DNA of 13,547 nt from Halothiobacillaceae bacterium (GTDB lineage: Bacteria; Pseudomonadota; Gammaproteobacteria; Halothiobacillales; Halothiobacillaceae): positions 1-13,547 of the forward strand of contig JAQVHL010000059.1 of the NCBI GenBank assembly GCA_028696185.1, read 5' to 3'. The notes under the pieces are model-generated. The model ran no database searches. It saw only the letters and a program-made list of their open reading frames with translations, and was not told the origin of the DNA. Position numbers and translations under genes: made by a program. Below, in pieces: positions 299 to 13,383 of the stretch; positions within the stretch are counted from its first letter, which is position 1; each line of letters begins with the position of its first letter.

Positions 299-1156
299 CT
301 ATTCCCCCTGAAACAAATCGAGGGTTTGCGGATTTCGTCCGCGCGGACGCATGGACGCCCCCGCCGAACTGAGCAGCGAGCGAATGCGCTGTATCGAGTA
401 GCCCGTTTCGTCTGCAAGTTGCCGCACGCTGAACCCCATCTCGTAGCGCACTCGCAGCTCTTGGCCAATGGCATCCGCCCGCGCCTGATTGAGATGCTCA
501 TTGGGAAGCAGGGGGGGCAAGATCGCCCCGCCTTCATACCCCTTGTGCACCGCACCACGCGGGGTGACGTCATCCGAAGATTCATCGCCCCACGCCGTCC
601 AGCCTGGGCGCGCATGCCGAGCGAACAGTTCGAGATAGGCCCCTGGCGAGCAGGATTCAATCAGATCGTACTGCTCATCCGGCTTGCGCGAATGCTCGCG
701 CTTGCGCGTTTCGATCATGTTCACCTGAGACCGCCCCGGCGCGAGTGTGCGCATGGAGCCTCGAACGCCGAACAGGAGCAGTTCGGTGACGTTCCGAAAA
801 TAAAAACCCACGCCGCGGCCGTCCGGGCCGCCATCCTTGCGCCGCTTAGCCCAGACGATGTTGGAAACGTAGCGGAATCCCCAGGCCGTCATGACATCCA
901 GCCCGTCTGGCAGCAACGCATTGGGCACCCACAGGTAAAGGTGTGCATTGGGTGCCACAACGCTTTGGACATCCATCGCCTTGATGGCATCCAGGGACAT
1001 CGTCGAATAGCGATCCAGCCTGCGATGCTCGGGCGCAACCTTGCCGGTTCGATTGGCAAATCGCCACGGGGGATCGGCAAGAACGGTAGAAAAGCCTCCT
1101 GCCGTTCTTGGCAAAGGAGGGGCTTCTTTTTCTTCGCGTAAGGGGCTTCTTTCCAT
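299..1156 (-). CDS. MT-A70 family N6-adenine DNA methyltransferase with C-terminal HTH-like tail. No restriction enzyme partner is visible in the window, so it is a probable orphan or accessory MTase.
   Basis: The translation contains the catalytic DPPW motif near the N-terminus (VLADPPWRF), followed by a Gly-rich SAM-binding-like segment (ELLLFGVRG). This is the MT-A70/Ime4-type permuted amino-MTase pattern. The C-terminal roughly 50 aa (GFSVRQLADETGYSIQRIRSLL) resembles a sigma70-region-4-like helix-turn-helix. The in-frame ATG at 1154-1156 is preferred over the upstream GTG at 1165. Stop TAG at 299-301. The gene sits in a locally lower-GC context. Confidence 0.8.
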   Translation of the reverse strand: MERSPLREEKEAPPLPRTAGGFSTVLADPPWRFANRTGKVAPEHRRLDRYSTMSLDAIKAMDVQSVVAPNAHLYLWVPNALLPDGLDVMTAWGFRYVSNIVWAKRRKDGGPDGRGVGFYFRNVTELLLFGVRGSMRTLAPGRSQVNMIETRKREHSRKPDEQYDLIESCSPGAYLELFARHARPGWTAWGDESSDDVTPRGAVHKGYEGGAILPPLLPNEHLNQARADAIGQELRVRYEMGFSVRQLADETGYSIQRIRSLLSSAGASMRPRGRNPQTLDLFQGE

Positions 1157-1175
1157 GATACGCACCCTACATCAA

Positions 1176-1347: not shown

Positions 1348-2394
1348 TTGAGCTCGCCTCGCCTTTGCCTGCCCGCGTCGCTGGATGCCACGCCCTGGAT
1401 GCCCTGGATGGCCTTCGCGCTGATTATCCTGGCGGTTTTTTTCGTCGTTGGGGAGCACTTGTTGCCGGCGCTTCTGGCGGGCTTGCTGATGCATCAGATG
1501 GTGCATCTCATCGCGCGGCGTTTGATCAGTCCGGTGCTGTCCTCGCACTACGCGCGGGTGACGGCCGTTTTCCTGGTGTCTTCGCTGGTTCTGGCGGCCC
1601 TGACTCTGGGCGGTCTGGCCATTCTGCATTTCCTGCATGGCAGCGGGCAGGAGGGGGTGGAGGGGTTGATGAATCAGATGGCCCGCATCCTGGCGGATAC
1701 CAAGGCGGCGTTGCCGGGTTGGGCTGTGCAGTGGCTGCCGCCGGATGCGGAAACCTTGCGTGACAAGGCGGTGCAGTGGTTGAGCGCGCATGCGGCCGAT
1801 GTCGGCTCGGCGGGCGGGGCAGTTGGTTTCGGGCTGATCCACATGGTGATCGGGTTGATTATCGGGGCGATGGTTTCCTTGCACAGCGAGGCCCAGGACC
1901 CGCAACAGGCGGGGCCGCTGGCGCGAGCCCTGCTGGATGAGATCCGCGCCTTCAGCGCGGCCTTCGGCCGCATCGTTTCCGCGCAGGCGTGGATTTCCAC
2001 CGTCAATACCTCGTTGACGGCGATTTATCTGCTGGTGGTTCTGCCGCTGGCCGGTGTGCAATTGCCGCTGGTGAAGACGATGGTGCTGGTGACCTTTGTC
2101 ATGGGATTCATACCGATCGTCGGCAATCTGGTCAGCAATACCGTCATTACGGTGATCAGCCTGTCCCACTCGTTCAGTGTGGCGGTGGCTTCCCTGAGCT
2201 TCCTGGTCGTGATTCACAAGGTGGAGTATTTCCTCAACGCGCGGATTGTCGGCGGTCATATCCGCGCCAGAGCCTGGGAAATACTGATTGCCATGCTGGC
2301 GATGGAGCGTATCGCGGGCATTCCGGGGCTGATTGTCAGTCCGATTTTGTATGCGTATCTGAAGGATGGCTTGAAGAAGCGGGGGCTGGTGTAA
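1348..2394 (+). CDS. AI-2E family transporter (PerM/YdiK/TqsA-like, UPF0118)
   Basis: The protein is about 350 aa and multi-pass hydrophobic, with the characteristic C-terminal-half motif GFIPIVGNLVSNTVI and the overall AI-2E architecture. The TTG start at 1348 is preceded by AAGGAAAA (1334-1341). Alternative in-frame ATGs at 1399 and 1408 would shorten the N-terminus. Stop TAA at 2392-2394. Confidence 0.8.
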   Translation: MSSPRLCLPASLDATPWMPWMAFALIILAVFFVVGEHLLPALLAGLLMHQMVHLIARRLISPVLSSHYARVTAVFLVSSLVLAALTLGGLAILHFLHGSGQEGVEGLMNQMARILADTKAALPGWAVQWLPPDAETLRDKAVQWLSAHAADVGSAGGAVGFGLIHMVIGLIIGAMVSLHSEAQDPQQAGPLARALLDEIRAFSAAFGRIVSAQAWISTVNTSLTAIYLLVVLPLAGVQLPLVKTMVLVTFVMGFIPIVGNLVSNTVITVISLSHSFSVAVASLSFLVVIHKVEYFLNARIVGGHIRARAWEILIAMLAMERIAGIPGLIVSPILYAYLKDGLKKRGLV

Positions 2395-2457: not shown

Positions 2458-4422
2458 TTACGGCCGCGTCTTGTAAAACCTAAGCGGTACGGTCTGCGCC
2501 TCGTGGGCGCGGGCCTGGACGACGCCGCGCTTGAGCTTGCCGACCACATGCATCTCGCAGGGCTTGCAGTCGAACGTAAGCTTGAGCTTTTCGCTGCCAT
2601 TCATGAGCCAGAGCGGCTCGGCCTTGATGGTGCCGTGCACGCCGGTCACGCCGCGCGTCTGCTTGGGGCAGAGGCTCAGGCTGTAACGCACGCAATGCTT
2701 GGTAATCATCAGGCTGACTTCGCCTTCCTCCTCATGCGCTTCAAAGGCGGCCTCTATCAGCTTCACGCCGTGCCGGGCGTAGAAATCGCGCGCCTTGTGG
2801 TTGAACACGTTGGCGAGATAGCTCAGATGCTCTTGCGGGTAAGGCACGGGCGGATGAGCCGGCACGGCGCGTGGCAGGCGTTGCAGGGCGGCCTTGCGCA
2901 TCGCTTCCAGTGCTTCGATACCTTCGCGACGGAGCTGGTTGACGAGGGAGGCGGGCACGAACCAGGGCTGACCGAGATCAAGCACGATCTCCACCGCATC
3001 AAAGAGGGTCGTCCCAAGTTTGCCCAGGTTCTCACGCAGGGAGCTTTCCGCGCGGGCGGCGTCCCTGGCGGGTTCCTTGTTGATGGCGAGCGTTGCTGTT
3101 GCGGTATGACCGTCTTCGTCGGTCAGGTCCAGGGCGAGGCCGTCGGCGGTATCGAACAGCCGCATCCACACACCGATGCGGCGCTCGGCGGATTTCCTGT
3201 CCAGCCCGCGCACCCAGCTCATGTCGCGGTTGCGGTTGATCTCGGTGCCTGCGCGCAGGTGGCGCAGTTCCGCGATGGGGTCTTTCGGGACCACGCGCCA
3301 GCGACCCACGCCATTCGAGGGGCCGAGCTTCTCGGCGGTATTGATCGCCATGCCGACCAGTTCCCTGTGCAGGTCGAAGTAGCACAGGCCGTCGCCGTTA
3401 TTGAGCAGCGTATCGGCGCCGGTTTCGATATCGACCGAGTCTTTATTGATCTTCACCACCCAGCCAATCGGTCGACCGGGGTTCTTGGGCGAGTCGAACG
3501 CGCCGATGTCTTCCTTGCGGCCCTGCACGAAGTAGTCGGTCGCGTCGCGGTTGAAGTTCTGCACCGGGTCCGGCGTGAAGCTGAAGCGGCTGCGCCCGCT
3601 GGAGGCGCGGGCGAGTTCCGGGCGACCTTCGAGGATGCCATCCAGCAGGCGGCGGTAATGGGCGGTGATGTTCTTCACGTAGCCCATGTCCTTGTAGCGG
3701 CCTTCGATCTTGAAGCTCTGGATGCCCGCGTCGATCAGGACGGCGAGGTTCGCGCTCTGGTCGTTGTCCTTCATCGACAGCACGTGCTTGTCGTGCGCGA
3801 CGATGCGGCCCTGCGCATCCGTCACCTGGTAGGGCAGGCGGCATGCCTGGTTGCATTCGCCCCGGTTGGCGCTGCGCCCGGTATGCGCCTCGGAGATGTA
3901 GCACTGGCCGGAATAGGCCACGCACAGCGCGCCGTGGATGAAAAATTCCAAGGGCACGGAGGTGGCGGCGCGGATGGCTTGAATTTGCGTCAGATCGAGC
4001 TCACGCGCGAGCACCAGTTGCGACAAGCCCGCATCCTGCAGGAAGCGCGCCTTCTCCGGGGTGCGGATGTCGCACTGGGTGCTGGCATGCAGCTGGATGG
4101 GCGGAAGGTCCAGCTCCAGCAGGCCCATGTCCTGGATGATGAGCGAGTCCACGCCCGCATCGTAGAGCTGGTGCGCCAGCTTGCGCGCCGGTTCCAGCTC
4201 GTCGTCGCGCAGGATGGTGTTGAGCGTGACATGGATGCGCGCGTGGAAACGGTGCGCATAGTCGACCAGCCGGGCGATGTCGGCCACGTCGTTGTCCGCC
4301 GCCTTGCGCGCGCCGAAGCCGGGACCGCCGATATAGACCGCGTCCGCGCCGTGGTTGATGGCCTCGATGCCGATATCCGCATCGCGCGCCGGGGCGAGGA
4401 GTTCGAGTTGATGGGCTTGCAT
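2458..4422 (-). CDS. rlhA: U32 family peptidase-like protein, long form (RlhA/YdcP-like putative rRNA C-hydroxylation factor)
   Basis: The 654-aa product carries the U32 signature E-x-F-x-H-G-A-L-C-x-A-Y-S-G-x-C (EFFIHGALCVAYSGQCYISE). The length matches the about 650-aa YdcP/RlhA subgroup rather than the about 450-aa YegQ/TrhP subgroup. ATG at 4420-4422, TAA at 2458-2460. The symbol is assigned on length and family only. Confidence 0.8.
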   Translation of the reverse strand: MQAHQLELLAPARDADIGIEAINHGADAVYIGGPGFGARKAADNDVADIARLVDYAHRFHARIHVTLNTILRDDELEPARKLAHQLYDAGVDSLIIQDMGLLELDLPPIQLHASTQCDIRTPEKARFLQDAGLSQLVLARELDLTQIQAIRAATSVPLEFFIHGALCVAYSGQCYISEAHTGRSANRGECNQACRLPYQVTDAQGRIVAHDKHVLSMKDNDQSANLAVLIDAGIQSFKIEGRYKDMGYVKNITAHYRRLLDGILEGRPELARASSGRSRFSFTPDPVQNFNRDATDYFVQGRKEDIGAFDSPKNPGRPIGWVVKINKDSVDIETGADTLLNNGDGLCYFDLHRELVGMAINTAEKLGPSNGVGRWRVVPKDPIAELRHLRAGTEINRNRDMSWVRGLDRKSAERRIGVWMRLFDTADGLALDLTDEDGHTATATLAINKEPARDAARAESSLRENLGKLGTTLFDAVEIVLDLGQPWFVPASLVNQLRREGIEALEAMRKAALQRLPRAVPAHPPVPYPQEHLSYLANVFNHKARDFYARHGVKLIEAAFEAHEEEGEVSLMITKHCVRYSLSLCPKQTRGVTGVHGTIKAEPLWLMNGSEKLKLTFDCKPCEMHVVGKLKRGVVQARAHEAQTVPLRFYKTRP

Positions 4423-4526: not shown

Positions 4527-6140
<1,614 letters not shown>

Positions 6141-6156
6141 GTCTGCTTATCCTGAA

Positions 6157-6176
6157 AGATAAATATAGATAAATAA
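6157..6176. repeat. Tandem AT-rich 10-mer repeat (AGATAAATAT / AGATAAATAA) immediately upstream of the rtcR start
   Basis: Seen directly in the sequence. It lies within a 120-bp AT-rich island separating rtcR from the sigma54 promoter. Confidence 0.4.
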
Positions 6177-6240
6177 TTCTAGTCCATTTCCAGTCGCAGA
6201 GAGATCATCGTCCACACCTGATGCTTTTATACTTCTTTTA

Positions 6241-6253
6241 TATCAATGGCTTA
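6241..6253 (+). promoter_or_regulatory. Candidate IHF binding site (TATCAATGGCTTA, matching WATCAANNNNTTR) upstream of the sigma54 promoter
   Basis: Perfect match to the IHF core consensus, located about 30 bp upstream of the -24 element. The AT-rich flanks are typical of DNA-bending sites at sigma54 promoters. Confidence 0.4.
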
Positions 6254-6281
6254 TTGATTTGCATCGGGGCGTTGGCGGTGC

Positions 6282-6296
6282 TGGCACGCTCCTCGC
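6282..6296 (+). promoter_or_regulatory. Sigma54 (RpoN) -24/-12 promoter for the rtc operon: TGGCACG-CTCC-TCGC
   Basis: Matches TGGCACG-N4-TTGC at all positions but one (TCGC for TTGC) with correct spacing. It is oriented toward the SPFH-rtcB-rtcA genes and is divergent from the sigma54 activator gene rtcR, the organisation known from E. coli and Salmonella rtc loci. Confidence 0.65.
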
Positions 6297-6422
6297 CAAT
6301 ACCTTCCTGATCGCGAAAGAGCGCAAAGGCCTTCGGGTCGGGGGTCTTCCCCCACCGGTGCGCACGCCCCGGAGGATATTTCCGGTCGGATGTGTGTATG
6401 CCGCCGCGCGTTCACGTGATCT

Positions 6423-6470
6423 TCGCGAGTCCATGGGGATTTTCCGGGTTCGACTCCCGGCTCGCGGCCA
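6423..6470 (+). ncRNA. tRNA-like minihelix: a 7-bp acceptor stem (UCGCGAG/CUCGCGG, U1-G72 wobble) plus a canonical T-arm (CCGGG-UUCGACU-CCCGG), ending in an encoded CCA. It has no D arm or anticodon arm.
   Basis: Read directly from the sequence. T-loop TTCGACT matches the T-Psi-C-R-A consensus. A 14-nt linker (UCCAUGGGGAUUUU) replaces the D and anticodon arms. CCA at 6468-6470 immediately follows the 3' acceptor strand. It shares the 14-mer GGGTTCGACTCCCG and a CCATGGG(G)AT motif with the adjacent element. Confidence 0.45.
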
Positions 6471-6539
6471 TGGGATAGCTCAGTGGGTAGAGCAGCCGTT
6501 GACCACGGCCGGTCGCGGGTTCGACTCCCGCTCCAAGCT
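6469..6539 (+). ncRNA. tRNA-like element or pseudo-tRNA. The D arm, T arm and 5-nt variable loop are canonical, but the acceptor stem is disrupted (4 of 7 pairs) and the anticodon loop is shortened.
   Basis: The arms read: U8A9; GCTC-AGTGGGTA-GAGC; A26; GCCGT-TGACC-ACGGC (5-bp stem with 5-nt loop; the alternative is a 4-bp stem with a 7-nt loop TTGACCA, anticodon GAC); variable loop CGGTC; GCGGG-TTCGACT-CCCGC; 3' strand TCCAAGC. The 5' strand CATGGGA pairs with only 4 of its 7 positions. It is not a canonical decodable tRNA. It lies on the same strand as the rtc operon and downstream of it. Confidence 0.5.
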
Positions 6540-6603
6540 TGTCTGCCTTGCGGACAGATTGACGTTGATACTTGCCGGTACGTGGCGTGCGCGAGCACCC
6601 GCC

Positions 6604-6618
6604 GCCGGTCTGACCGGC
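6604..6618. promoter_or_regulatory. 15-bp perfect palindrome GCCGGTC-T-GACCGGC in the rtc leader, a candidate protein-binding site
   Basis: Seen in the sequence. The 1-nt spacer makes an RNA hairpin unlikely, which favours a dimeric DNA-binding site. A 6-bp/3-nt-loop hairpin CCTTGC-GTG-GCAAGG follows at 6629-6643. Confidence 0.3.
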
Positions 6619-6782
6619 TCCCGGGCCACCTTGCGTGGCAAGGGAGGGGGCGGCAGCGGCATGCACCGATCCAGGCGATGGGTGTATGCGTGCTACGCCG
6701 TTCTCTGCCTCCCCGCGTCAGGCGCCTGGGTGGTCCGTCGGACGGGCGTTGGCCGGCAAGGCTTATTACAAGGAGAAGCACG

Positions 6783-7928
6783 ATGCTCAAGCGTTTCATC
6801 GTGAAGAAAAACGAACGTGGTGCCCTGATGCGGGATGGCGATTTCGAACGCCTGCTCGACGCCGGGCGGCATTATTTCTGGGATCCGCTGGGTCGCCTGT
6901 CGCTGGTGACCTGGAAACTGGACGCACCGATGGATGCGACCGATATTGTCGAGTACCTGCGCCGTCATGCTCCTGCGCTTGCCGAGCGTAGTTTCGAGTG
7001 CATGATCCTGGGCGAGGATGAAGCCGGGTTGCGATTTGAAAACGACATCCTGGTGGAGATTCTTGCGCCCGGAACGCGGCGCTTCTACTGGAAAGGGCTG
7101 GTGGCACACCGGCTGGAGCGGGTCGATCTGCGTGAGGACTGTCGCGTGGCTGCGCCCACGCTTGCACACTTGATACAGCCTGATCTGCGTGGGCGAGCGC
7201 TTGCGGGGTTGTCCGGCGTGCTGCTTGCACAGGTGCCGCCACACCATGTGGGTATTCTGCGTATCGATGGCAAGGAGCAGGGGCTGCTTGAACCGGGCAT
7301 GGCCGCGTTCTGGCGCTTCAACCGCGACGTGCAACTGGAGCGGGTCGATACCCGCCTGCAAGCGATGGAGGTCAGTGGGCAGGAAATCCTGACGCGCGAC
7401 AAGGTGAGCCTGCGCCTGAATCTGGCCGCCACCTGGCGTTATGCCGATGTGCGTGTCGCCCATGCCCGTCTGGCGCGACCGGTGGAGTATCTCTACCGCG
7501 AGTTGCAGTTTGGTTTGCGTTCGGCGGTCGGTACGCGCCATCTCGATGAACTGCTGGAAAACAAGCAGATCATCGATGGAGGCGTGATCCAGCATGTACG
7601 CGCCCGCTTGGAAGGCTTCGGGATCGAGATCGAGAGCCTGGGGGTGAAGGACATCATCCTGCCGGGGGAGATGAAGACCCTGCTGGCCCAGGTGGTCGAG
7701 GCCGAGAAATCCGCCCAGGCCAATGTGATCCGCCGCCGTGAGGAAACGGCCGCCACCCGCTCGCTGCTCAACACGGCGAAGGTCATGGAAGACAACCCCG
7801 TGGCCTTGCGGCTCAAGGAGCTGGAAACCCTGGAGCGAGTGGCCGAGCGGATCGACAGGATCTCGGTTTTTGGCGGACTGGATCAGGTTCTGGACGGATT
7901 GGTGAGCTTGCGCCCGAGCGGTGCATGA
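6783..7928 (+). CDS. SPFH/band-7 (slipin/stomatin-like) domain protein encoded inside the rtc operon
   Basis: The N-terminus MLKRFIVKKNERGALMRDGDFERLL is typical of bacterial slipin-family proteins. The C-terminal half has the SPFH coiled-coil region (KDIILPGEMKTLLAQVVEAEKSAQANVIRRREETAATRSLLNTAKV). AAGGAG RBS at 6771-6776, 6 nt before the ATG at 6783. The stop TGA at 7926-7928 is 25 nt before the rtcB start. Confidence 0.85.
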   Translation: MLKRFIVKKNERGALMRDGDFERLLDAGRHYFWDPLGRLSLVTWKLDAPMDATDIVEYLRRHAPALAERSFECMILGEDEAGLRFENDILVEILAPGTRRFYWKGLVAHRLERVDLREDCRVAAPTLAHLIQPDLRGRALAGLSGVLLAQVPPHHVGILRIDGKEQGLLEPGMAAFWRFNRDVQLERVDTRLQAMEVSGQEILTRDKVSLRLNLAATWRYADVRVAHARLARPVEYLYRELQFGLRSAVGTRHLDELLENKQIIDGGVIQHVRARLEGFGIEIESLGVKDIILPGEMKTLLAQVVEAEKSAQANVIRRREETAATRSLLNTAKVMEDNPVALRLKELETLERVAERIDRISVFGGLDQVLDGLVSLRPSGA

Positions 7929-7953
7929 CGAGTACACACGAGGAAGAATGAAA

Positions 7954-9171
7954 ATGTCGCACCAGATCATGGCTGTGGAAAACGGCAAGCCGGTCAAGAT
8001 GTGGACCGAAGGTGTCCCGGTGGAGGACGATGCACGCCGGCAACTGGCCAACACCGCGCGCATGCCGTTCATTTACGGGCATCTGGCGGTGATGCCGGAC
8101 GTACACCTGGGCAAGGGCTCGACCATCGGCAGCGTCATCCCCACCCAGGGCGCGATTATTCCGGCGGCGGTCGGTGTGGACATCGGCTGCGGGATGATGG
8201 CTGCGCGCACTTCGCTTGTGGCCGCCGATTTGCCCGACAACCTGCATCCTCTGCGTACGGCCATCGAAAAAGCGGTGCCGCACGGGCGCAGCGTGGGGCG
8301 AGGGCGGCGCGACGTGGGGAGCTGGGAAAATCCGCCGGCGAACGTGGATGCGCAGTGGGCCGCGCTGCTGCCTGGCTTCAACCGCATCACCGAAAAATAC
8401 CCGCGCCTGAAAAACACCAATCACTACAAGCATCTGGGGACACTGGGTACCGGAAATCATTTCATCGAAGTCTGCCTGGACGAGTCCGAACGGGTCTGGT
8501 TCATGCTGCATTCGGGGTCGCGTGGCGTGGGCAATGCCATTGGCAGCCTGTTCATCGAACTGGCGCAACAGGACATGCGCCAGCATATCGCCAATCTGCC
8601 GGACCGGGACCTGGCGTATTTTGAGGAAGGCAGCGTGCATTTCTCCGATTATGTCGAAGCGGTTGGCTGGGCGCAGGACTATGCCCGCCGCAATCGAGCG
8701 GCGATGATGGAAAATGTGATTGCCGCAGCGAGAACAGTGATTGCCAGGCCCTTCCGGGCCGACATCGAGGCGGTGAATTGCCACCACAACTATGTGCAGC
8801 GCGAGACGCACTTCGGCGCCGAGATTCTGGTGACCCGCAAGGGTGCGGTATCGGCCCGAAAGGGCGAGCTGGGCATCATCCCCGGCTCCATGGGCGCAAG
8901 GAGCTACATCGTGCGCGGTCTGGGCAATGAGGCGTCGTTCTGTTCCTGCAGCCACGGCGCAGGACGCGCGATGAGCCGGAACGAAGCGCGGCGTCGCTTC
9001 ACGCTCGATGACCAGATCCGCGCGACCGAGGGCGTTGAATGCCGCAAGGATGAAGCCGTCATCGACGAAATTCCCATGGCCTACAAGGACATCGACGCCG
9101 TGATGCACGCCCAGCGCGAACTGGTGGAAGTGCTGCATACGCTACGTCAGGTCGTGTGCGTGAAGGGGTAA
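7954..9171 (+). CDS. rtcB: RtcB RNA ligase (joins 3'-phosphate or 2',3'-cyclic phosphate ends to 5'-OH ends)
   Basis: The 405-aa product is near-collinear with E. coli RtcB: KMWTEGVPVE, MPDVHLGKGSTIGSVIPT, GTGNHFIE, NCHHNY, SCSHGAGR, and the C-terminal EVLHTLRQVVCVKG. GAGGA at 7940-7944 sits 9 nt before the ATG at 7954. The upstream in-frame GTG at 7921 and ATG at 7948 are less likely. Confidence 0.95.
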   Translation: MSHQIMAVENGKPVKMWTEGVPVEDDARRQLANTARMPFIYGHLAVMPDVHLGKGSTIGSVIPTQGAIIPAAVGVDIGCGMMAARTSLVAADLPDNLHPLRTAIEKAVPHGRSVGRGRRDVGSWENPPANVDAQWAALLPGFNRITEKYPRLKNTNHYKHLGTLGTGNHFIEVCLDESERVWFMLHSGSRGVGNAIGSLFIELAQQDMRQHIANLPDRDLAYFEEGSVHFSDYVEAVGWAQDYARRNRAAMMENVIAAARTVIARPFRADIEAVNCHHNYVQRETHFGAEILVTRKGAVSARKGELGIIPGSMGARSYIVRGLGNEASFCSCSHGAGRAMSRNEARRRFTLDDQIRATEGVECRKDEAVIDEIPMAYKDIDAVMHAQRELVEVLHTLRQVVCVKG

Positions 9172-9190
9172 GAGCGCAAATGTGCGCTCT
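9171..9190 (+). other. Perfect 8-bp stem / 4-nt loop hairpin (AGAGCGCA-AATG-TGCGCTCT) between the rtcB stop and the rtcA start
   Basis: Seen in the sequence and overlapping the rtcB TAA. No U-tract follows, so it is more likely an intercistronic processing or stability element than a terminator. Confidence 0.35.
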
Positions 9191-9220
9191 ACCATGACAG
9201 GGGCTTCCTTGCAGGGGGGA

Positions 9221-10249
9221 ATGATGGAGCCGATCGAACTGGATGGTTCGCAGGGCGAGGGTGGCGGCCAGATCCTTCGCAGCGCGCTGAGCCTGTCGAT
9301 GATTACCGGTAAGCCGTTCGTGATCGAACGCATACGGGCGCGGCGTGCCCGGCCGGGCCTGTTGCGCCAGCATATTACCGCCGTGCTCGCGGCGGCGGAA
9401 ATCTCGCAGGCGCAGCTGAGCGGGGCCGAGCTGGGTTCCTCGACCCTGCGCTTTCAACCCGGTCCGGTACGCGGAGGAGAGTACCGCTTTGCCATCGGCT
9501 CGGCGGGCAGTTGCACGCTGGTGCTGCAAACCCTGCTGCCGGCGCTCTGGTTTGCGGATGCGCCCAGCCGGGTGTCGATCCGTGGGGGAACGCACAATCA
9601 GGCCGCGCCCACGGCGGATTTCCTGATCCACAGCTGGCTTCCGCTCATGCGGCGGATGGGGGTGCACGATACGCTGACCTTGCTCCGGCACGGCTTTTAT
9701 CCGGCCGGCGGGGGCGAGATCGAAGCCTGCATCGAGCCGGTCGGCGCCTTGCGTCCCCTCGTCCTGGATGCGCCGGGTGAGCTGGTCTCCATGCAGGCCC
9801 GCGTGCTTCTTGCCGGCGTTGCTGGTGACGTGGCGCGGCGTGAGCTGGGCCGTCTGCGTGAGCGTCTGGGGCCCCTGGAGGGGCGGATCGAGGCCCTGCC
9901 CGCCTGCGAGGGGCCGGGCAATGTCCTGAGCGTCGAGCGGACACATGCCGGGCTTTCCCTGCTGTTTACGGCCATCGGCACAAAGGGGGTGTCGGCGGAA
10001 AAGGTGGCCGATCAAGCAAGTGAGGCGGTTCTGCGCCATGCGCGCAGTGGCGCGGCGGTGGAGGAGTATCTGGCGGACCAGCTTGTCTTGCCGATGGCCT
10101 TGGCCGGCGGTGGTCGTTTCAGCACGTCCACGCTGTCCTCGCACCTGCGTACCCAGTGCGCGGTGATCGGGCGGTTTCTTGGGGTCGATTTCACGTTCAC
10201 CCCAATGCAGGGCGTCGTCGTAGTCGGCGTGGGTGAGTTGGCAGGATAA
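9221..10249 (+). CDS. rtcA: RtcA RNA 3'-terminal phosphate cyclase
   Basis: Strong collinearity with E. coli RtcA: IELDGSQGEGGGQILRSALSLSMITGKPF, RAKPGLLRQH-like, GGEYRFAIGSAGSCTLVLQTLLPALWFAD, LLRHGFYPAGGG, YLADQLVLPMALAGGG. The ATG at 9221 is chosen because it matches the homologue N-terminus. The in-frame ATG at 9194 and the listed ORF start at 9182 are possible alternatives. Confidence 0.9.
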   Translation: MMEPIELDGSQGEGGGQILRSALSLSMITGKPFVIERIRARRARPGLLRQHITAVLAAAEISQAQLSGAELGSSTLRFQPGPVRGGEYRFAIGSAGSCTLVLQTLLPALWFADAPSRVSIRGGTHNQAAPTADFLIHSWLPLMRRMGVHDTLTLLRHGFYPAGGGEIEACIEPVGALRPLVLDAPGELVSMQARVLLAGVAGDVARRELGRLRERLGPLEGRIEALPACEGPGNVLSVERTHAGLSLLFTAIGTKGVSAEKVADQASEAVLRHARSGAAVEEYLADQLVLPMALAGGGRFSTSTLSSHLRTQCAVIGRFLGVDFTFTPMQGVVVVGVGELAG

Positions 10250-10385: not shown

Positions 10386-10643
10386 ATGCGCGTGGTGAAT
10401 TTTTCTGAAGCTCGTAACAGCCTCAAAAATGTAATCGATCAGGTCATCAACGATGCGGACTACACGGTGATTGTGAGACGGGATGCCCCCAATGCCGTCG
10501 TGATGTCGCTGGATACCTTCAACGGACTCATGGAGACCGTCCATCTGTTGAAATCGCCAGCCAATGCGACGCATCTGGCCCGTTCCATTGACCAGTACCG
10601 CCAGGGGCTGGTTTCGCAACGAGATCGGGTTGATGCCGACTGA
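10386..10643 (+). CDS. yefM: YefM antitoxin (Phd/YefM family)
   Basis: The 85-aa product (MRVVNFSEARNSLKNVIDQV...VVMSLDTFNGLMETVHLLKSPANATHLARSID) aligns along its length with E. coli YefM. Its stop overlaps the downstream toxin gene. Confidence 0.9.
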   Translation: MRVVNFSEARNSLKNVIDQVINDADYTVIVRRDAPNAVVMSLDTFNGLMETVHLLKSPANATHLARSIDQYRQGLVSQRDRVDAD

Positions 10644-10908
10644 GGAAAACGTGCTCACGCTGACGTGGACTTTGGCGGCCTGGAGTGATTACGAATACTG
10701 GCAAGGCCAGGATCGCAAAACACTCAAGCGCATCAATGCGTTGCTCAAGGACTGCCTGCGTCATCCGTTTGAGGGGATCGGCAAGCCTGAGCCCTTGAAA
10801 GAGAATCTCTCGGGTTTCTGGTCACGCCGCATAGACGATACGCATCGCCTGGTCTACTGCGCCGATGGGCAGTCGCTGGTAATCATCGCTTGCCGTTATC
10901 ACTATTAA
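10633..10908 (+). CDS. yoeB: YoeB toxin (ribosome-dependent mRNA interferase, RelE/ParE superfamily)
   Basis: The C-terminal 80 aa align with E. coli YoeB, including HPFEGIGKPEPLKENLSGFWSRRIDDTHRLVY...IIACRYHY and the catalytic end. The ATG at 10633 overlaps the yefM 3' end by 11 nt. The GTG at 10651 (SD GAGGA 10642-10646) is an alternative start that gives a product of E. coli YoeB length. Confidence 0.9.
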   Translation: MPTEENVLTLTWTLAAWSDYEYWQGQDRKTLKRINALLKDCLRHPFEGIGKPEPLKENLSGFWSRRIDDTHRLVYCADGQSLVIIACRYHY

Positions 10909-10987: not shown

Positions 10988-13240
10988 TCAGTCTTTCACG
11001 CAGTCGATGTAGTAGTGCTTCTTGCCGTCGATGTCCTCGGCGACCAAGCCGTGGATGTCGGTTTCGAAGCCCGGCAGCTGTTCGTTGAATTCCCGCGCGA
11101 AGCGCAGGTAATCGACGATGGTGCGGTTGAAGCGTTCGCCGGGAATCAAGAGCGGAATGCCCGGCGGGTAGGGGGTGACGAGGCTGGCGGTAATGCGGCC
11201 TTCCAGCGCGTCAATGGGCACGCGCTCGATCTGGCGGTGGGCCATCTTGGCCCAGGCGTCGGCCGGGCGCATGGCGGGGACCATGTCGGAGAGATACATC
11301 TCGGTGGTCAGCCGTGCGACATCGTAGCGCTTGTACAGATCGTGCAGGCGGGAGCAGAGATCCTTCAGCCCCATGCGTTCGTATTGCGGATGGTGGGCGA
11401 TGAATTCCGGCAGGATGCGCCACAGCGGCTGGTTGCGGTCGTAGTCGTCCTTGAACTGCTGCAGGGCGGTGACGAGGGTGTTCCAGCGGCCCTTGGTGAT
11501 GCCGATGGTGAACATAATGAAGAAGCTGTACAGGCCGGTCTTCTCCACCACCACGCCGTGTTCGGCCAGATAGCGGGTGACGATATTGGCGGGAATGCCG
11601 GTTTCGGCGAATTCGCCGTCCACATCGAGCCCCGGTGTGATGATGGTGGCCTTGATGGGGTCGAGCATGTTGAAGCCGTGCGCCACATTGCCAAAGCCGT
11701 GCCAGCGGTCGCCGTTCTGGATCATCCAGTCTTCGCGCTTGCCCAGACCCTCTTCGGGCAGGTAGTCCGGCCCCCAGACCTTGAACCACCAGTCGGCGCC
11801 CCATTCGGCGTCGACCTTGCGCATGGCGCGGCGGAAATTGAGCGCTTCGGCCAGCGATTCGTCGACGAGCGCGGTGCCGCCCGGCGGTTCCATCATGGCC
11901 GCTGCCACGTCGCAGGAGGCGATGATCGCGTACTGCGGCGAGGTGGAGGAGTGCATCAGGTAGGATTCGTTGAAGATGTCGCGGTCGAGTTTGCGCGTCT
12001 GCGCATCCTGCACCAGGATCTGTGAAGCTTGTGAGAGCCCGGCCAGGAGCTTGTGGGTGGACTGGGTGGAGAACACCATCGACTCCCGGCAGCGCGGACG
12101 TCCTTCGCCGATGGCGTGGTAGTCGCCGTAGAACTCGTGGAAGGCGGCATGCGGCAGCCAGGCTTCGTCGAAGTGCAGAGTTTCGATCTCCCCATCCAGC
12201 AGTTCCTTGATGGTTTCGACGTTGTAGAGCACACCGTCATAGGTGGACTGGGTGATGGTGAGCACGCGCGGTTTCTTGACGGCGGCCTCGCGGGCGTAGG
12301 GGTGTGCTTCGATTTTTTTCTTGATGTTTTCGGGCTTGAACTCATCGAGCGGGATCGGGCCGATGATGCCGAAATGGTTGCGCGTCGGCGTGAGGAATAC
12401 CGGGATCGCGCCGGTCATGATGATCGCGTGCAGGATGGATTTGTGGCAGTTGCGGTCCACTACCACGATATCGCCCGGTGCCACCACGCTGTGCCATACC
12501 ATCTTGTTCGAGGTGCTGGTGCCGTTGGTGACGAAGTACAGGTGATCGGCGTGGAAAATGCGCGCGGCATTACGCTCGGAGGCGGCCACCGGGCCGGTGT
12601 GGTCCAGAAGCTGGCCAAGCTCCTCGACGGCGTTGCATACGTCGGCGCGCAGCAGGTTCTCGCCGAAAAACTGATGGAACATCTGTCCGACCGGGCTTTT
12701 CAGGAAGGCCACGCCACCGGAGTGTCCGGGGCAGTGCCAGGAGTAGGAGCCGTCTGCCGCGTAACCGGTCAGGGCGCGGAAAAAGGGCGGCGCGAGGGTG
12801 TCGAGATAGGCCTTGGATTCGCGGATGATGTGACGCGCGACGAACTCCGGGGTGTCCTCGAACATGTGGATGAAGCCGTGCAGCTCCTTGAGCACATCGT
12901 TGGGGATGTGGCTGGAGGTGCGTGTCTCGCCATAGAGGAACAGGGGAATGTCCGCGTTGCGGAAGCGGATTTCCTCGACGAAGGCGCGCAGCTGGCGTAC
13001 CACATGGAGTTCTTCCTCCGGTACCCCGGAATTGAATTCTTCATCGTCGATGGACAGGATGAACGCGGATGCGCGGCTCTGTTGCTGCGCGAAAGTGGAT
13101 AGATCCCCGTAGCTGGTGACGCCCATGACTTCGACGCCTTCGTCCTCAATGGCCTTGGCCAGGGCGCGAATGCCGAAACCGCTGGCGTTTTCGGAGCGGA
13201 AATCTTCATCGATGATGACGATGGGGAAGCGGAATTTCAT
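10988..13240 (-). CDS. Orn/Lys/Arg decarboxylase family enzyme, large wing-domain type (LdcA/CadA/LdcC-like; probable lysine or arginine decarboxylase; PLP fold type I)
   Basis: About 750 aa. The N-terminus MKFRFPIVIIDEDF begins a response-regulator-like wing domain. Core segment SWHCPGHSGGVAFLKSPVGQMFHQFFGENLLRAD...LLDHTGP...FVTNGTSTSNKMV...DRNCHKS, and the PLP-lysine motif FSTQSTHKLLAGLSQAS. The closest resemblance is to Pseudomonas LdcA and E. coli CadA/LdcC. The ATG at 13238-13240 is chosen from the homologue N-terminus; the upstream ATG at 13273 is possible. Stop TGA at 10988-10990. Confidence 0.9.
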   Translation of the reverse strand: MKFRFPIVIIDEDFRSENASGFGIRALAKAIEDEGVEVMGVTSYGDLSTFAQQQSRASAFILSIDDEEFNSGVPEEELHVVRQLRAFVEEIRFRNADIPLFLYGETRTSSHIPNDVLKELHGFIHMFEDTPEFVARHIIRESKAYLDTLAPPFFRALTGYAADGSYSWHCPGHSGGVAFLKSPVGQMFHQFFGENLLRADVCNAVEELGQLLDHTGPVAASERNAARIFHADHLYFVTNGTSTSNKMVWHSVVAPGDIVVVDRNCHKSILHAIIMTGAIPVFLTPTRNHFGIIGPIPLDEFKPENIKKKIEAHPYAREAAVKKPRVLTITQSTYDGVLYNVETIKELLDGEIETLHFDEAWLPHAAFHEFYGDYHAIGEGRPRCRESMVFSTQSTHKLLAGLSQASQILVQDAQTRKLDRDIFNESYLMHSSTSPQYAIIASCDVAAAMMEPPGGTALVDESLAEALNFRRAMRKVDAEWGADWWFKVWGPDYLPEEGLGKREDWMIQNGDRWHGFGNVAHGFNMLDPIKATIITPGLDVDGEFAETGIPANIVTRYLAEHGVVVEKTGLYSFFIMFTIGITKGRWNTLVTALQQFKDDYDRNQPLWRILPEFIAHHPQYERMGLKDLCSRLHDLYKRYDVARLTTEMYLSDMVPAMRPADAWAKMAHRQIERVPIDALEGRITASLVTPYPPGIPLLIPGERFNRTIVDYLRFAREFNEQLPGFETDIHGLVAEDIDGKKHYYIDCVKD

Positions 13241-13383
13241 GGGGGCGTCACCGTGAAAGCAGGGGGAATGCATCCGGCAGTTTACCGGGTGAATGTGTCG
13301 TTCGTGTCACCGGTTCGATCAGGGGGTGCCGCTTCGTTCGGTGGATGGAAGGCGCGATCCGACGCGCGACATTTTACGCGCTT

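Follow-up and report, generated by a model that had tools for sequence, protein, structure and literature searches.

Tandem tRNA-mimic modules in the structured, sigma54-driven leader of a slipin-rtcB-rtcA operon

The subject of this study is a pair of tRNA-like modules encoded head to tail in a GC-rich stretch of 13,547 nt from a Halothiobacillaceae bacterium (contig JAQVHL010000059.1); this whole stretch is called the window below, and coordinates throughout refer to it. The modules lie in the leader of an operon coding for a slipin (an SPFH/Band-7 protein), the RNA ligase RtcB and the RNA 3'-phosphate cyclase RtcA. Comparison with related loci indicates that both are conserved, covarying RNA structures which have a tRNA elbow and a coaxial stack of the acceptor and T stems. 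The downstream one, module 2, is well supported as a further example of the b7a-tRNA class (for tRNA associated with band-7) predicted in 2016, and its reduced upstream tandem partner, module 1, together with the covarying leader of about 450 nt that encloses both, may be new as anatomy. The modules are located as follows.

6423..6470, plus strand: module 1, an acceptor/T-arm module with a GCCA end
6469..6539, plus strand: module 2, a b7a-tRNA-type cloverleaf, recognised by ARAGORN, by the Rfam tRNA model and by covariation

The evidence comes mainly from 80 genomic loci, retrieved through alignment of slipin homologues from at least 574 loci confirmed by tblastn, and originating from Thiobacillus, Rhodocyclaceae, Burkholderia, Ralstonia, Pseudomonas and others. 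In most of the 80, ARAGORN makes a tRNA-like call at a distance of 250-340 nt ahead of slipin. Counting of T-arm motifs and D-arms, by which the locus classes listed here were set, revealed at least one module upstream of slipin in 75 of the 78 loci with enough upstream sequence, and two modules in 68.

Reduced module followed by a cloverleaf (the window type): 48 loci
Two complete cloverleaves, all Pseudomonas: 20 loci
One module: 7 loci
No module: 3 loci
Contig too short upstream: 2 loci

The position of the modules within the sigma54 leader is fixed from Thiobacillus to Pseudomonas, and in the loci with two cloverleaves the two ARAGORN calls overlap by a few bases. Since MAFFT put the 5' acceptor strand of module 1 out of register, a covariance model was built, for which a gap-free seed alignment of seven Rhodocyclaceae loci was explicitly annotated with the structure of both modules. 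This model, made from relatives only, found both modules in the window with 73.4 bits (E = 4e-13). When 45 loci of the window type were aligned to it, 92.4% of the cells were paired, a value somewhat inflated because the alignment is fitted to the model, as compared with 77.7% after shuffling and 35-49% with slid partners. Compensatory change was seen in 24 of the 33 module pairs, and none of 500 shuffles reached any of five measures. The raw acceptor strands, listed locus by locus, show the same compensation. Covariation of the stems, to which an earlier note on this DNA, made from the sequence alone, had looked for confirmation of its tRNA mimics, is thus present in orthologous loci. In addition, conservation of the T-arm and D-arm sequences exceeds what the structure alone requires.

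In module 1, TCGCGAG (6423-6429) pairs with CTCGCGG (6461-6467) through six Watson-Crick pairs and a U6423.G6467 wobble, so that the 'perfect' 7-bp acceptor stem of the earlier note has to be corrected, whereas its canonical T-arm (CCGGG-TTCGACT-CCCGG, 6444-6460) and its encoded CCA (6468-6470, following G6467) stand as described. A linker of 14 nt (6430-6443) replaces the D and anticodon arms. For the isolated 48-mer, the minimum free energy (MFE) structure is this acceptor/T-arm fold, with the GCCA tail single-stranded. Among the 45 aligned sequences all seven acceptor pairs covary, with such variants as TCGCGAG/CTCGCGG, GGGCGAT/GTCGCCC, GGTCATG/CATGACC and GAACGAT/ATCGTTC, and the T stem is 98.6% paired. 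Compensatory change in every pair of the acceptor indicates that module 1 is under purifying selection.

The linker measures 12-16 nt in most loci and is G-rich and moderately conserved, with the consensus CUGGUGGCUCGY. An additional tetraloop-capped hairpin is found in module 1 of six loci, and in Pseudomonas the module 1 position is occupied by an element with full D and anticodon arms. The proposal that the short element is an arm-reduced relative of the full one gains from this series, in which the Pseudomonas cloverleaf and the intermediates elsewhere imply no direction of change. A mini D-stem of 3 bp (TCC/GGA), suggested within the linker by the MFE structure of the window, was rejected, as it forms in 17 of 36 linkers compared with 15 +/- 3 after shuffling. 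By hand count, the module 1 acceptor is followed by NCCA in 21 of 47 loci and by NCCU in 8 more; CCA at this site is enriched but not fixed.

The cloverleaf of module 2 comprises a D-arm at 6478-6493 (stem GCTC/GAGC, D-loop AGTGGGTA), an anticodon arm at 6495-6509 with a 5-bp stem and a loop of only 5 nt, a 5-nt variable loop (CGGTC, 6510-6514) and a canonical T-arm (6515-6531). Its acceptor (6469-6475 with 6532-6538) is weak, with four of seven pairs forming in the window, and is followed by a hairpin, without a 3' CCA. The arms, the variable loop and the broken acceptor are as originally read from the sequence. The accompanying expectation that tRNA scanners would make no call, or a pseudo call, turned out to be wrong: ARAGORN reports tRNA-Val(GAC) at 6467-6540, and the Rfam tRNA model RF00005 gives 39 bits against a gathering score of 29, in a local match over model positions 5-66 that leaves out the outer acceptor pairs. 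Across the 45 sequences the anticodon stem covaries in all five pairs, and the D stem does not vary. In the acceptor the inner five pairs are maintained, G-C being swapped to C-G in 11 sequences, and the outer two are unpaired in 31 and 23 sequences. The T-loop is TTCGAnT in both modules, and module 2 retains the elbow bases U8, A14, G15, G18-G19, C48 and G53-C61; the tRNA elbow and the L-shape should therefore form.

At orthologous sites ARAGORN assigns anticodons for Met, Ile, Leu, Thr, Val, Arg, Asn, Lys, Ser or Pro, or leaves them undefined. In Rhodocyclaceae the anticodon loop is a Met-like 7-mer, CUCAUAA or CUCAUCA, and in Burkholderia, Ralstonia and Pseudomonas it is a GAAA/GCAA/GCGA (GNRA) or UUCG tetraloop on a 6-bp stem. 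The loop is thus free to vary and is a tetraloop in several lineages, so that no conserved anticodon is left and these tRNA-like RNAs do not decode. The identity of a canonical decoding tRNA was rejected, since module 2 has neither a 7-bp acceptor with CCA nor a 7-nt loop with a conserved anticodon.

The two modules are joined closely. The 14-mer GGGTTCGACTCCCG occurs in exactly two copies, at 6446-6459 and 6517-6530 (chance expectation 0.01), and a CCATGGG(G)AT motif is found at 6431-6440 and 6468-6476; both repeats had been pointed out in the earlier note. Just 0-3 nt lie between the module 1 acceptor and canonical position +1 of module 2, and as a result the encoded CCA of module 1 overlaps positions 1-2 of module 2. 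With such a junction the two acceptor stems could stack as one continuous helix with an elbow at either end. The CCATGG palindromes at 6431-6436 and 6468-6473 can also pair with each other, and do so in the MFE structure of the whole tandem; this alternative fold is specific to the lineage of the window, the palindrome being absent in relatives.

The genes and the promoter that form the context of the modules are the following.

6282..6296, plus strand: sigma54 (-24/-12) promoter TGGCACGCTCCTCGC, driving the leader and the operon
4527..6140, minus strand: rtcR, sigma54 enhancer-binding activator with an RtcR/CARF N-terminal domain (Pfam RtcR 1.1e-86, Sigma54_activat 9.8e-49)
6783..7928, plus strand: slipin (SPFH/Band-7), first coding sequence (CDS) of the operon (Pfam Band_7 8.9e-30)
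7921..9171, plus strand: rtcB, RNA ligase (Pfam RtcB 8e-128)
9182..10249, plus strand: rtcA, RNA 3'-phosphate cyclase (Pfam RTC 2.8e-79, RTC_insert)

The intergenic region between the divergent rtcR and the slipin-rtcB-rtcA operon (6783-10249) is 642 nt long, and the distance from the end of the modules to the slipin ATG is 244 nt. The arrangement with rtcR divergent and rtcB/rtcA downstream is common to most of the 80 related loci. The sigma54 promoter assigned earlier to 6282-6296 is corroborated by its recurrence, as its motif (TGGCACG-N4-TCGC) is kept in most relatives at the same distance, 450-575 nt before the slipin start codon. Neither a sigma70-like promoter nor an intrinsic terminator was found across 6100-6850. 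No TROVE/Ro60 domain was detected by Pfam in the 16 open reading frames (ORFs) of the window that were scanned, which agrees with the earlier remark that the locus has no Ro60 gene and which concerns the window rather than the whole genome. The slipin gene has the ribosome-binding site (RBS) AAGGAG at 6770-6775, and its product is 100% identical to a 'slipin family protein' of a Halothiobacillaceae metagenome-assembled genome. In a structure model of moderate quality (pLDDT 67.5) the best PDB matches of the predicted fold are stomatin, HflK/C and prohibitin; such a model can confirm only the stomatin/HflK-like SPFH fold and is silent on RNA binding. No obvious N-terminal membrane segment was seen in the slipin sequence.

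The b7a-tRNA was predicted by Burroughs and Aravind (2016, Nucleic Acids Res 44:8525, as referred to in bioRxiv 10.1101/312249). It is described there as a tRNA-like non-coding RNA which is found beside a Band-7/SPFH gene and RtcB in systems without Ro60; the same text (Wang et al., bioRxiv 10.1101/312249) gives the proposal that its function is redundant with that of YrlA, and it had received no experimental validation as of 2018. Module 2 shares position, strand and shape with this class, the match being one of description rather than of published alignment. It is a tRNA-like cloverleaf with canonical D and T arms, as judged from ARAGORN, Rfam and covariation; the modules lie directly upstream of a Band-7/SPFH gene on the same strand, as they do in 75 of 78 relatives; and the operon is an RtcB operon without Ro60 (slipin-RtcB-RtcA with divergent RtcR, 16 window ORFs). 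In the abstract of the 2016 paper by Burroughs and Aravind, 'Rot/TROVE and SPFH/Band-7 modules' are reportedly coupled to 'YRNAs and a novel tRNA-like molecule'. The b7a-tRNA has no Rfam family of its own, and scans of the window returned the tRNA, YrlA and tmRNA models only. The thought that tRNA mimics stand here where Y RNAs stand in other rtc operons, put forward in the earlier note, coincides with the b7a-tRNA idea as published (bioRxiv 10.1101/312249).

A counterpart of module 2 has been annotated in Pseudomonas aeruginosa, where tRNA-Arg4 (PA4581.1) is located between rtcR (PA4581) and PA4582-PA4585 (PMC13637947, 2026). It has no CCA end and an atypical D-loop, and its level, determined by reverse transcription quantitative PCR (RT-qPCR), is about half that of canonical tRNAs (PMC13637947). 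Its genomic position is the same as that of module 2, as far as can be compared through the published annotation, the P. aeruginosa locus lying outside our set. In related Pseudomonas loci of the set ARAGORN calls tRNA-Arg(ACG) for module 2, which is in line with the Arg label of PA4581.1. PA4581.1 is annotated as a real tRNA, and the related Pseudomonas loci have two full cloverleaves, whereas module 1 of the window is reduced. Because the class was named in 2016 and PA4581.1 is annotated, module 2 is not an undescribed element.

Among other tRNA-like RNAs, the closest comparison is offered by YrlA (RF02553). It is likewise embedded in an RtcR/sigma54 operon, with the order rsr-yrlBA-rtcBA, and it preserves the elbow, as the modules do. 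The consensus of its D-arm (UAGCUCA..GGUAGAGC) and T-arm (GCGGGUUCGA..CCCGC) is nearly identical to the arms in the window. In YrlA, however, the tRNA-like domain is permuted, a long stem that binds Ro60 closes it, and no acceptor end is free, whereas the window has two modules of ordinary topology, lacks a Ro-binding stem and shows no Ro60 gene in the vicinity.

Module 1 resembles the tRNA-like domain of tmRNA and the acceptor/T-arm minihelices in that an acceptor stem, a T-arm and a CCA end are present, a short linker rich in G takes the place of the D arm, and the anticodon arm is missing; it differs from tmRNA in the absence of the mRNA-like domain, the pseudoknots and the G3.U70 alanine identity pair. 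A tmRNA identity (RF00023) was rejected, because the match reaches 24.7 bits against a gathering score of 47, spans 6435-6536 and skips about 320 model positions, and is an artefact of the shared T-arm: it pairs module 1 sequence with the T-arm of module 2 and does not recover module 1 as such. The acceptor/T-arm part of tRNA is what RNase P, the CCA-adding enzyme and T-loop modifying enzymes recognise. In longer transcripts with mascRNA/MALAT1-type or operon-internal tRNA-like folds, RNase P recognition can define RNA ends; each of those signals stands alone, at the 3' end of a transcript or between cistrons, whereas in the window a tandem pair lies within a far larger conserved 5' leader.

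The modules are not the only structured part of the leader. Twenty-six leaders were aligned from the approximate transcription start to the slipin ATG, and the RNAalifold consensus contains 86 pairs, 55 of them compensatory. Of the cells, 95.2% are paired, compared with 83.7% after shuffling and 34-47% with slid partners, and 0 of 500 shuffles reach the observed values, for a structure derived from the same alignment that is used to test it. By this comparison the modules sit inside a covarying leader of about 450 nt with a 5' domain and a 3' rod, whose elements are listed here.

6328..6405, plus strand: 5' leader domain, with P1 (6328-6330 with 6403-6405) and the P2 hairpin (6336-6343 with 6350-6356)
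6357-6374 with 6381-6402, plus strand: long helix P3, pairing GGUGCG... with conserved ...CGYAUGCC (GYAUGCC motif)
6540..6556, plus strand: hairpin directly 3' of module 2, UGUCUGC-CUU-GCGGACA (MFE -8.5 kcal/mol, z = -3.4)
6574..6757, plus strand: 3' leader domain, rod-shaped and about 185 nt long, with three nested helices (H9, H11, H12) and a variable tip
Rod helices: H9, 6574-6579 with 6752-6757; H11, 6603-6619 with 6732-6748; H12, 6629-6642 with 6709-6722

In the 5' domain 12 of 18 pairs of P3 and 6 of 7 pairs of P2 are compensatory, and in the window the domain forms its consensus pairs with 3 exceptions. Hairpins orthologous to that at 6540-6556 show, as judged by eye, the compensatory versions CTGTC/GACAG, CTGCC/GGCAG, AAGCC/GGCTT and CCAGA/TCTGG. 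Covariation in the rod extends to 15 of 16 pairs of H11 and 9 of 11 of H12. The segment 6565-6765, which holds the rod, folds into a nearly continuous rod of -130 kcal/mol (z = -6.6), and the 3' end of the rod lies 12 nt before the ribosome-binding site. The rod is a possible RNase III substrate or protein-binding platform. An Rfam scan of the window found only the tRNA family at threshold; relaxed matches in the leader were at chance level, and the rod has no family.

Natural variants of the leader occur in the set. In three Pseudomonas loci (L039, L047, L049) with leaders of about 450 nt, the promoter, the 5' domain and the rod are kept and a short hairpin replaces both modules. Two further loci (L052, L071) have a single hybrid module with acceptor strands from different modules, which looks like a product of recombination between module 1 and module 2. 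A single-module leader and slipin, with no rtcR or rtcB within 6 kb, are present at positions 6001-7731 of L036 and 6001-7131 of L080; the sigma54 promoter motif is kept in L036 and was not found in L080. As these two loci retain the leader together with slipin in the absence of rtcR and rtcB, the RNA is tied to slipin rather than to RtcB. Wherever it occurs, it is under purifying selection. In L036 a 186-aa ORF without a Pfam match follows slipin, and in many other loci the space between slipin and rtcB is about as large and might accommodate a small gene.

The rtcR-less loci (from Variovorax, Aquabacterium and Ramlibacter; L072, L076, L078, L079 and L080) have no recognisable sigma54 promoter. 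Four of these (L072, L076, L078, L079) keep both modules, slipin and rtcB, and L080 combines a single module with slipin and lacks rtcB. From 1 to 7 canonical-looking tRNA genes precede the leader on the same strand in L076 (its positions 4145-4222), L078 (2083-2649) and L079 (4145-4705 and 4890-5483). In L079 the leader is closely preceded by the end of an HNH endonuclease gene (Pfam HNH_5, 1.9e-14), the C-terminal coding sequence of which can be recognised by eye also in L076, L078 and L080.

How might these modules act? To our judgement the chances are about even that they constitute a processed tRNA-mimic RNA partner of the slipin/RtcB system, released from the leader. According to this proposal, the RtcR/sigma54 promoter would transcribe the modules within a structured leader of about 480 nt ahead of slipin-rtcB-rtcA. 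After induction, tRNA-processing enzymes would cut the leader, RNase P acting at the 5' side of module 1 and possibly a second time at the junction of the modules, between 6468 and 6469. On module 1 this would leave an NCCA end like that of a tRNA, which is either present in the encoded sequence or finished by the CCA-adding enzyme. Once released, the tRNA-shaped RNA or RNAs would act in trans with the slipin oligomer and RtcB/RtcA, as a Y RNA does with Ro60, and would present tRNA-shaped substrates, or compete for them, during RNA repair. The junction of 0-3 nt would let the acceptor stems stack end to end and would keep the distance between the two elbows constant. SPFH proteins oligomerise into rings or cages.

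An acceptor/T minihelix with RCCA is a minimal substrate of RNase P and the CCA-adding enzyme. The prerequisites for processing are a 12-bp (7+5) acceptor/T stack, a canonical T-loop and NCCA in 21 of 47 loci. Processing of module 1 in the manner of a tRNA is plausible because of these features and because the leader contains no terminator or sigma70 promoter. It is made plausible also by the RtcR-less loci, where canonical tRNA arrays precede the modules on the same strand, and by the match of the D and T arms to the consensus of YrlA, a substrate of tRNA-modifying enzymes; according to the literature, the YrlA and YrlB RNAs embedded in operons are both processed and modified like tRNAs.

Several observations speak against release of the modules as a partner RNA. 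The level of PA4581.1 is unchanged on induction of the Rtc proteins (PMC13637947), which would be unexpected for the product of a strictly sigma54-driven leader. The module-less Pseudomonas leaders mean that some lineages can do without the modules, more than half of the loci have no CCA, and the abutting of the Pseudomonas cloverleaves without a discriminator base argues against separation of the modules. The tandem region has an MFE no better than that of shuffled sequences (z = -0.6), and the isolated modules are likewise unremarkable thermodynamically (z = -0.7 and -1.0); single-sequence thermodynamics thus does not single out the modules, the support for which is comparative. Finally, about 250 nt of equally covarying leader follow the modules, and this fits a cis-acting leader at least as well.

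A broader and more tentative extension of the same proposal, which we would put forward as a possibility, is that the b7a-tRNA is one module of an undescribed sigma54-driven RNA of about 450 nt, composed of a three-helix 5' domain, the abutting mimics, the hairpin and the 185-nt rod, and that, together with an SPFH protein which is soluble and forms cages, this RNA may build a vault-like or Ro/Y-like ribonucleoprotein dedicated to RNA repair.

The chief alternative, that of a purely cis-acting leader, that is, one large 5' untranslated region controlling processing, stability or translation of slipin-rtcBA with no small RNA acting in trans, we consider rather unlikely. For example, entry sites for RNase P and RNase III could turn the primary transcript into a stable, translatable mRNA. 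Such a function would be consistent with covariation over the entire leader (55 of 86 pairs compensatory, a value reached by 0 of 500 shuffles), with the very stable rod (z = -6.6) ending 12 nt before the ribosome-binding site, with the lack of a terminator between the modules and the CDS, and with persistence of the 5' and 3' domains in leaders devoid of modules. Yet a processing signal needs neither two modules, nor invariant D and T arms, nor a conserved elbow, and the sequences of the T- and D-arms are conserved beyond structural need. Moreover, Salmonella processes operon-embedded Y RNAs into stable RNAs acting in trans, and the P. aeruginosa counterpart of module 2 is detectable independently of operon induction (PMC13637947).

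It is unlikely, in our opinion, that the modules serve as decoys or sensors for tRNA-targeting toxins. As decoys they would be non-cleavable competitive inhibitors of tRNA nucleases, as has been proposed for YrlA; as sensors they would be cleavable bait, the fragments of which, with 2',3'-cyclic phosphate ends, would feed back on the CARF domain of RtcR. Activation of RtcR by tRNA fragments is consistent with such roles, as are the proposal that YrlA competitively inhibits an anticodon nuclease, the tetraloop-capped 'anticodon' stems, which would resist anticodon nucleases, the tRNA-Met-like CUCAUAA or CUCAUCA loop of Rhodocyclaceae, and the YefM/YoeB pair directly after rtcA. Anticodon nucleases generally read the anticodon loop, but this loop is not conserved here. 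Besides, modules that are made only once RtcR is active cannot be its primary signal.

That the modules form a YrlA-type Y RNA for a Ro60 protein encoded elsewhere in the genome is very improbable. The Rfam YrlA model, the running of which was suggested earlier, gives a sub-threshold match at 6422-6522 (29.3 bits, E = 3e-4 in a 660-nt search), and the order of a T-arm followed by a D-arm, here those of module 1 and module 2, respectively, is typical of YrlA. This score is, however, far below the gathering score of 69. The match joins the T-arm of module 1 to the D-arm of module 2, and the outer stem it implies has no comparative support: its pairing is 51.1%, compared with 55.0% on average after shuffling and 28-52% for slid partners. 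Covariation links the 5' strand of module 1 instead to the strand right after its own T-arm, and no TROVE domain occurs in the 16 window ORFs scanned. On these grounds YrlA identity was rejected.

Partial tRNA repeats are typical of att sites, and ARAGORN and Rfam do call a tRNA, but we find it scarcely credible that module 2 represents an ordinary, decoding tRNA-Val gene and that module 1 is a decayed partial duplicate or the att remnant of an integrative element, given the ten or more different or undefined anticodons and the tetraloops among orthologues, the broken acceptor of module 2 without a 3' CCA, the purifying selection on module 1 with compensation in all 7 acceptor pairs, the fixed leader position from Thiobacillus to Pseudomonas, and the finding of neither an integrase, in the 16 ORFs of the window that were scanned, nor a third copy of the repeat, in the window as a whole, by which the att-site origin considered in the earlier note is not borne out.

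A separate question is whether the leader motif occurs in viruses. Scanning of viral contigs for GCAGTACCCGCCGG gave 120 stretches, of which 80 were kept as loci for the covariance model; the model matched in just 4 of these 80, the strongest match (L124) being away from the motif, and the viral motif matches therefore look like chance. At positions 263-359 of L124 (IMG/VR IMGVR_UViG_3300031199_000001), a contig retrieved by a chance 14-mer match, there is a 62-bit two-module match, which probably represents tandem phage tRNAs.

Directly after rtcA, on the same strand, a YefM antitoxin/YoeB toxin pair is encoded at 10386-10908 (Pfam 6e-21 and 1.1e-39). YoeB is an RNA-cleaving toxin and could supply substrates for RtcB/RtcA locally. 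The remaining genes flanking the locus in the window, listed below, are not obviously tied to it.

299-1165, minus strand: MT-A70 methyltransferase with a helix-turn-helix (HTH) domain
1348-2394, plus strand: AI-2E family transporter
2458-4422, minus strand: U32 peptidase
10988-13273, minus strand: Orn/Lys/Arg decarboxylase

The locus addresses the question of what role Y RNAs and other tRNA mimics have in bacterial Rtc RNA repair. In the literature that we found, the b7a-tRNA is represented by a bioinformatic prediction and one RT-qPCR measurement. The window and its 80 relatives add an anatomy backed by covariation, namely a tandem junction of 0-3 nt, the NCCA end of module 1 and a structured leader around the modules, and they also offer a dispensable, tetraloop-tolerant 'anticodon' loop and natural variants with one module or none. 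There is a practical side to this as well, since genome pipelines will label such elements as tRNA genes with arbitrary anticodons and thereby inflate tRNA gene counts. For the biology of the family, the comparative anatomy makes the function of these tRNA mimics directly testable by experiment.

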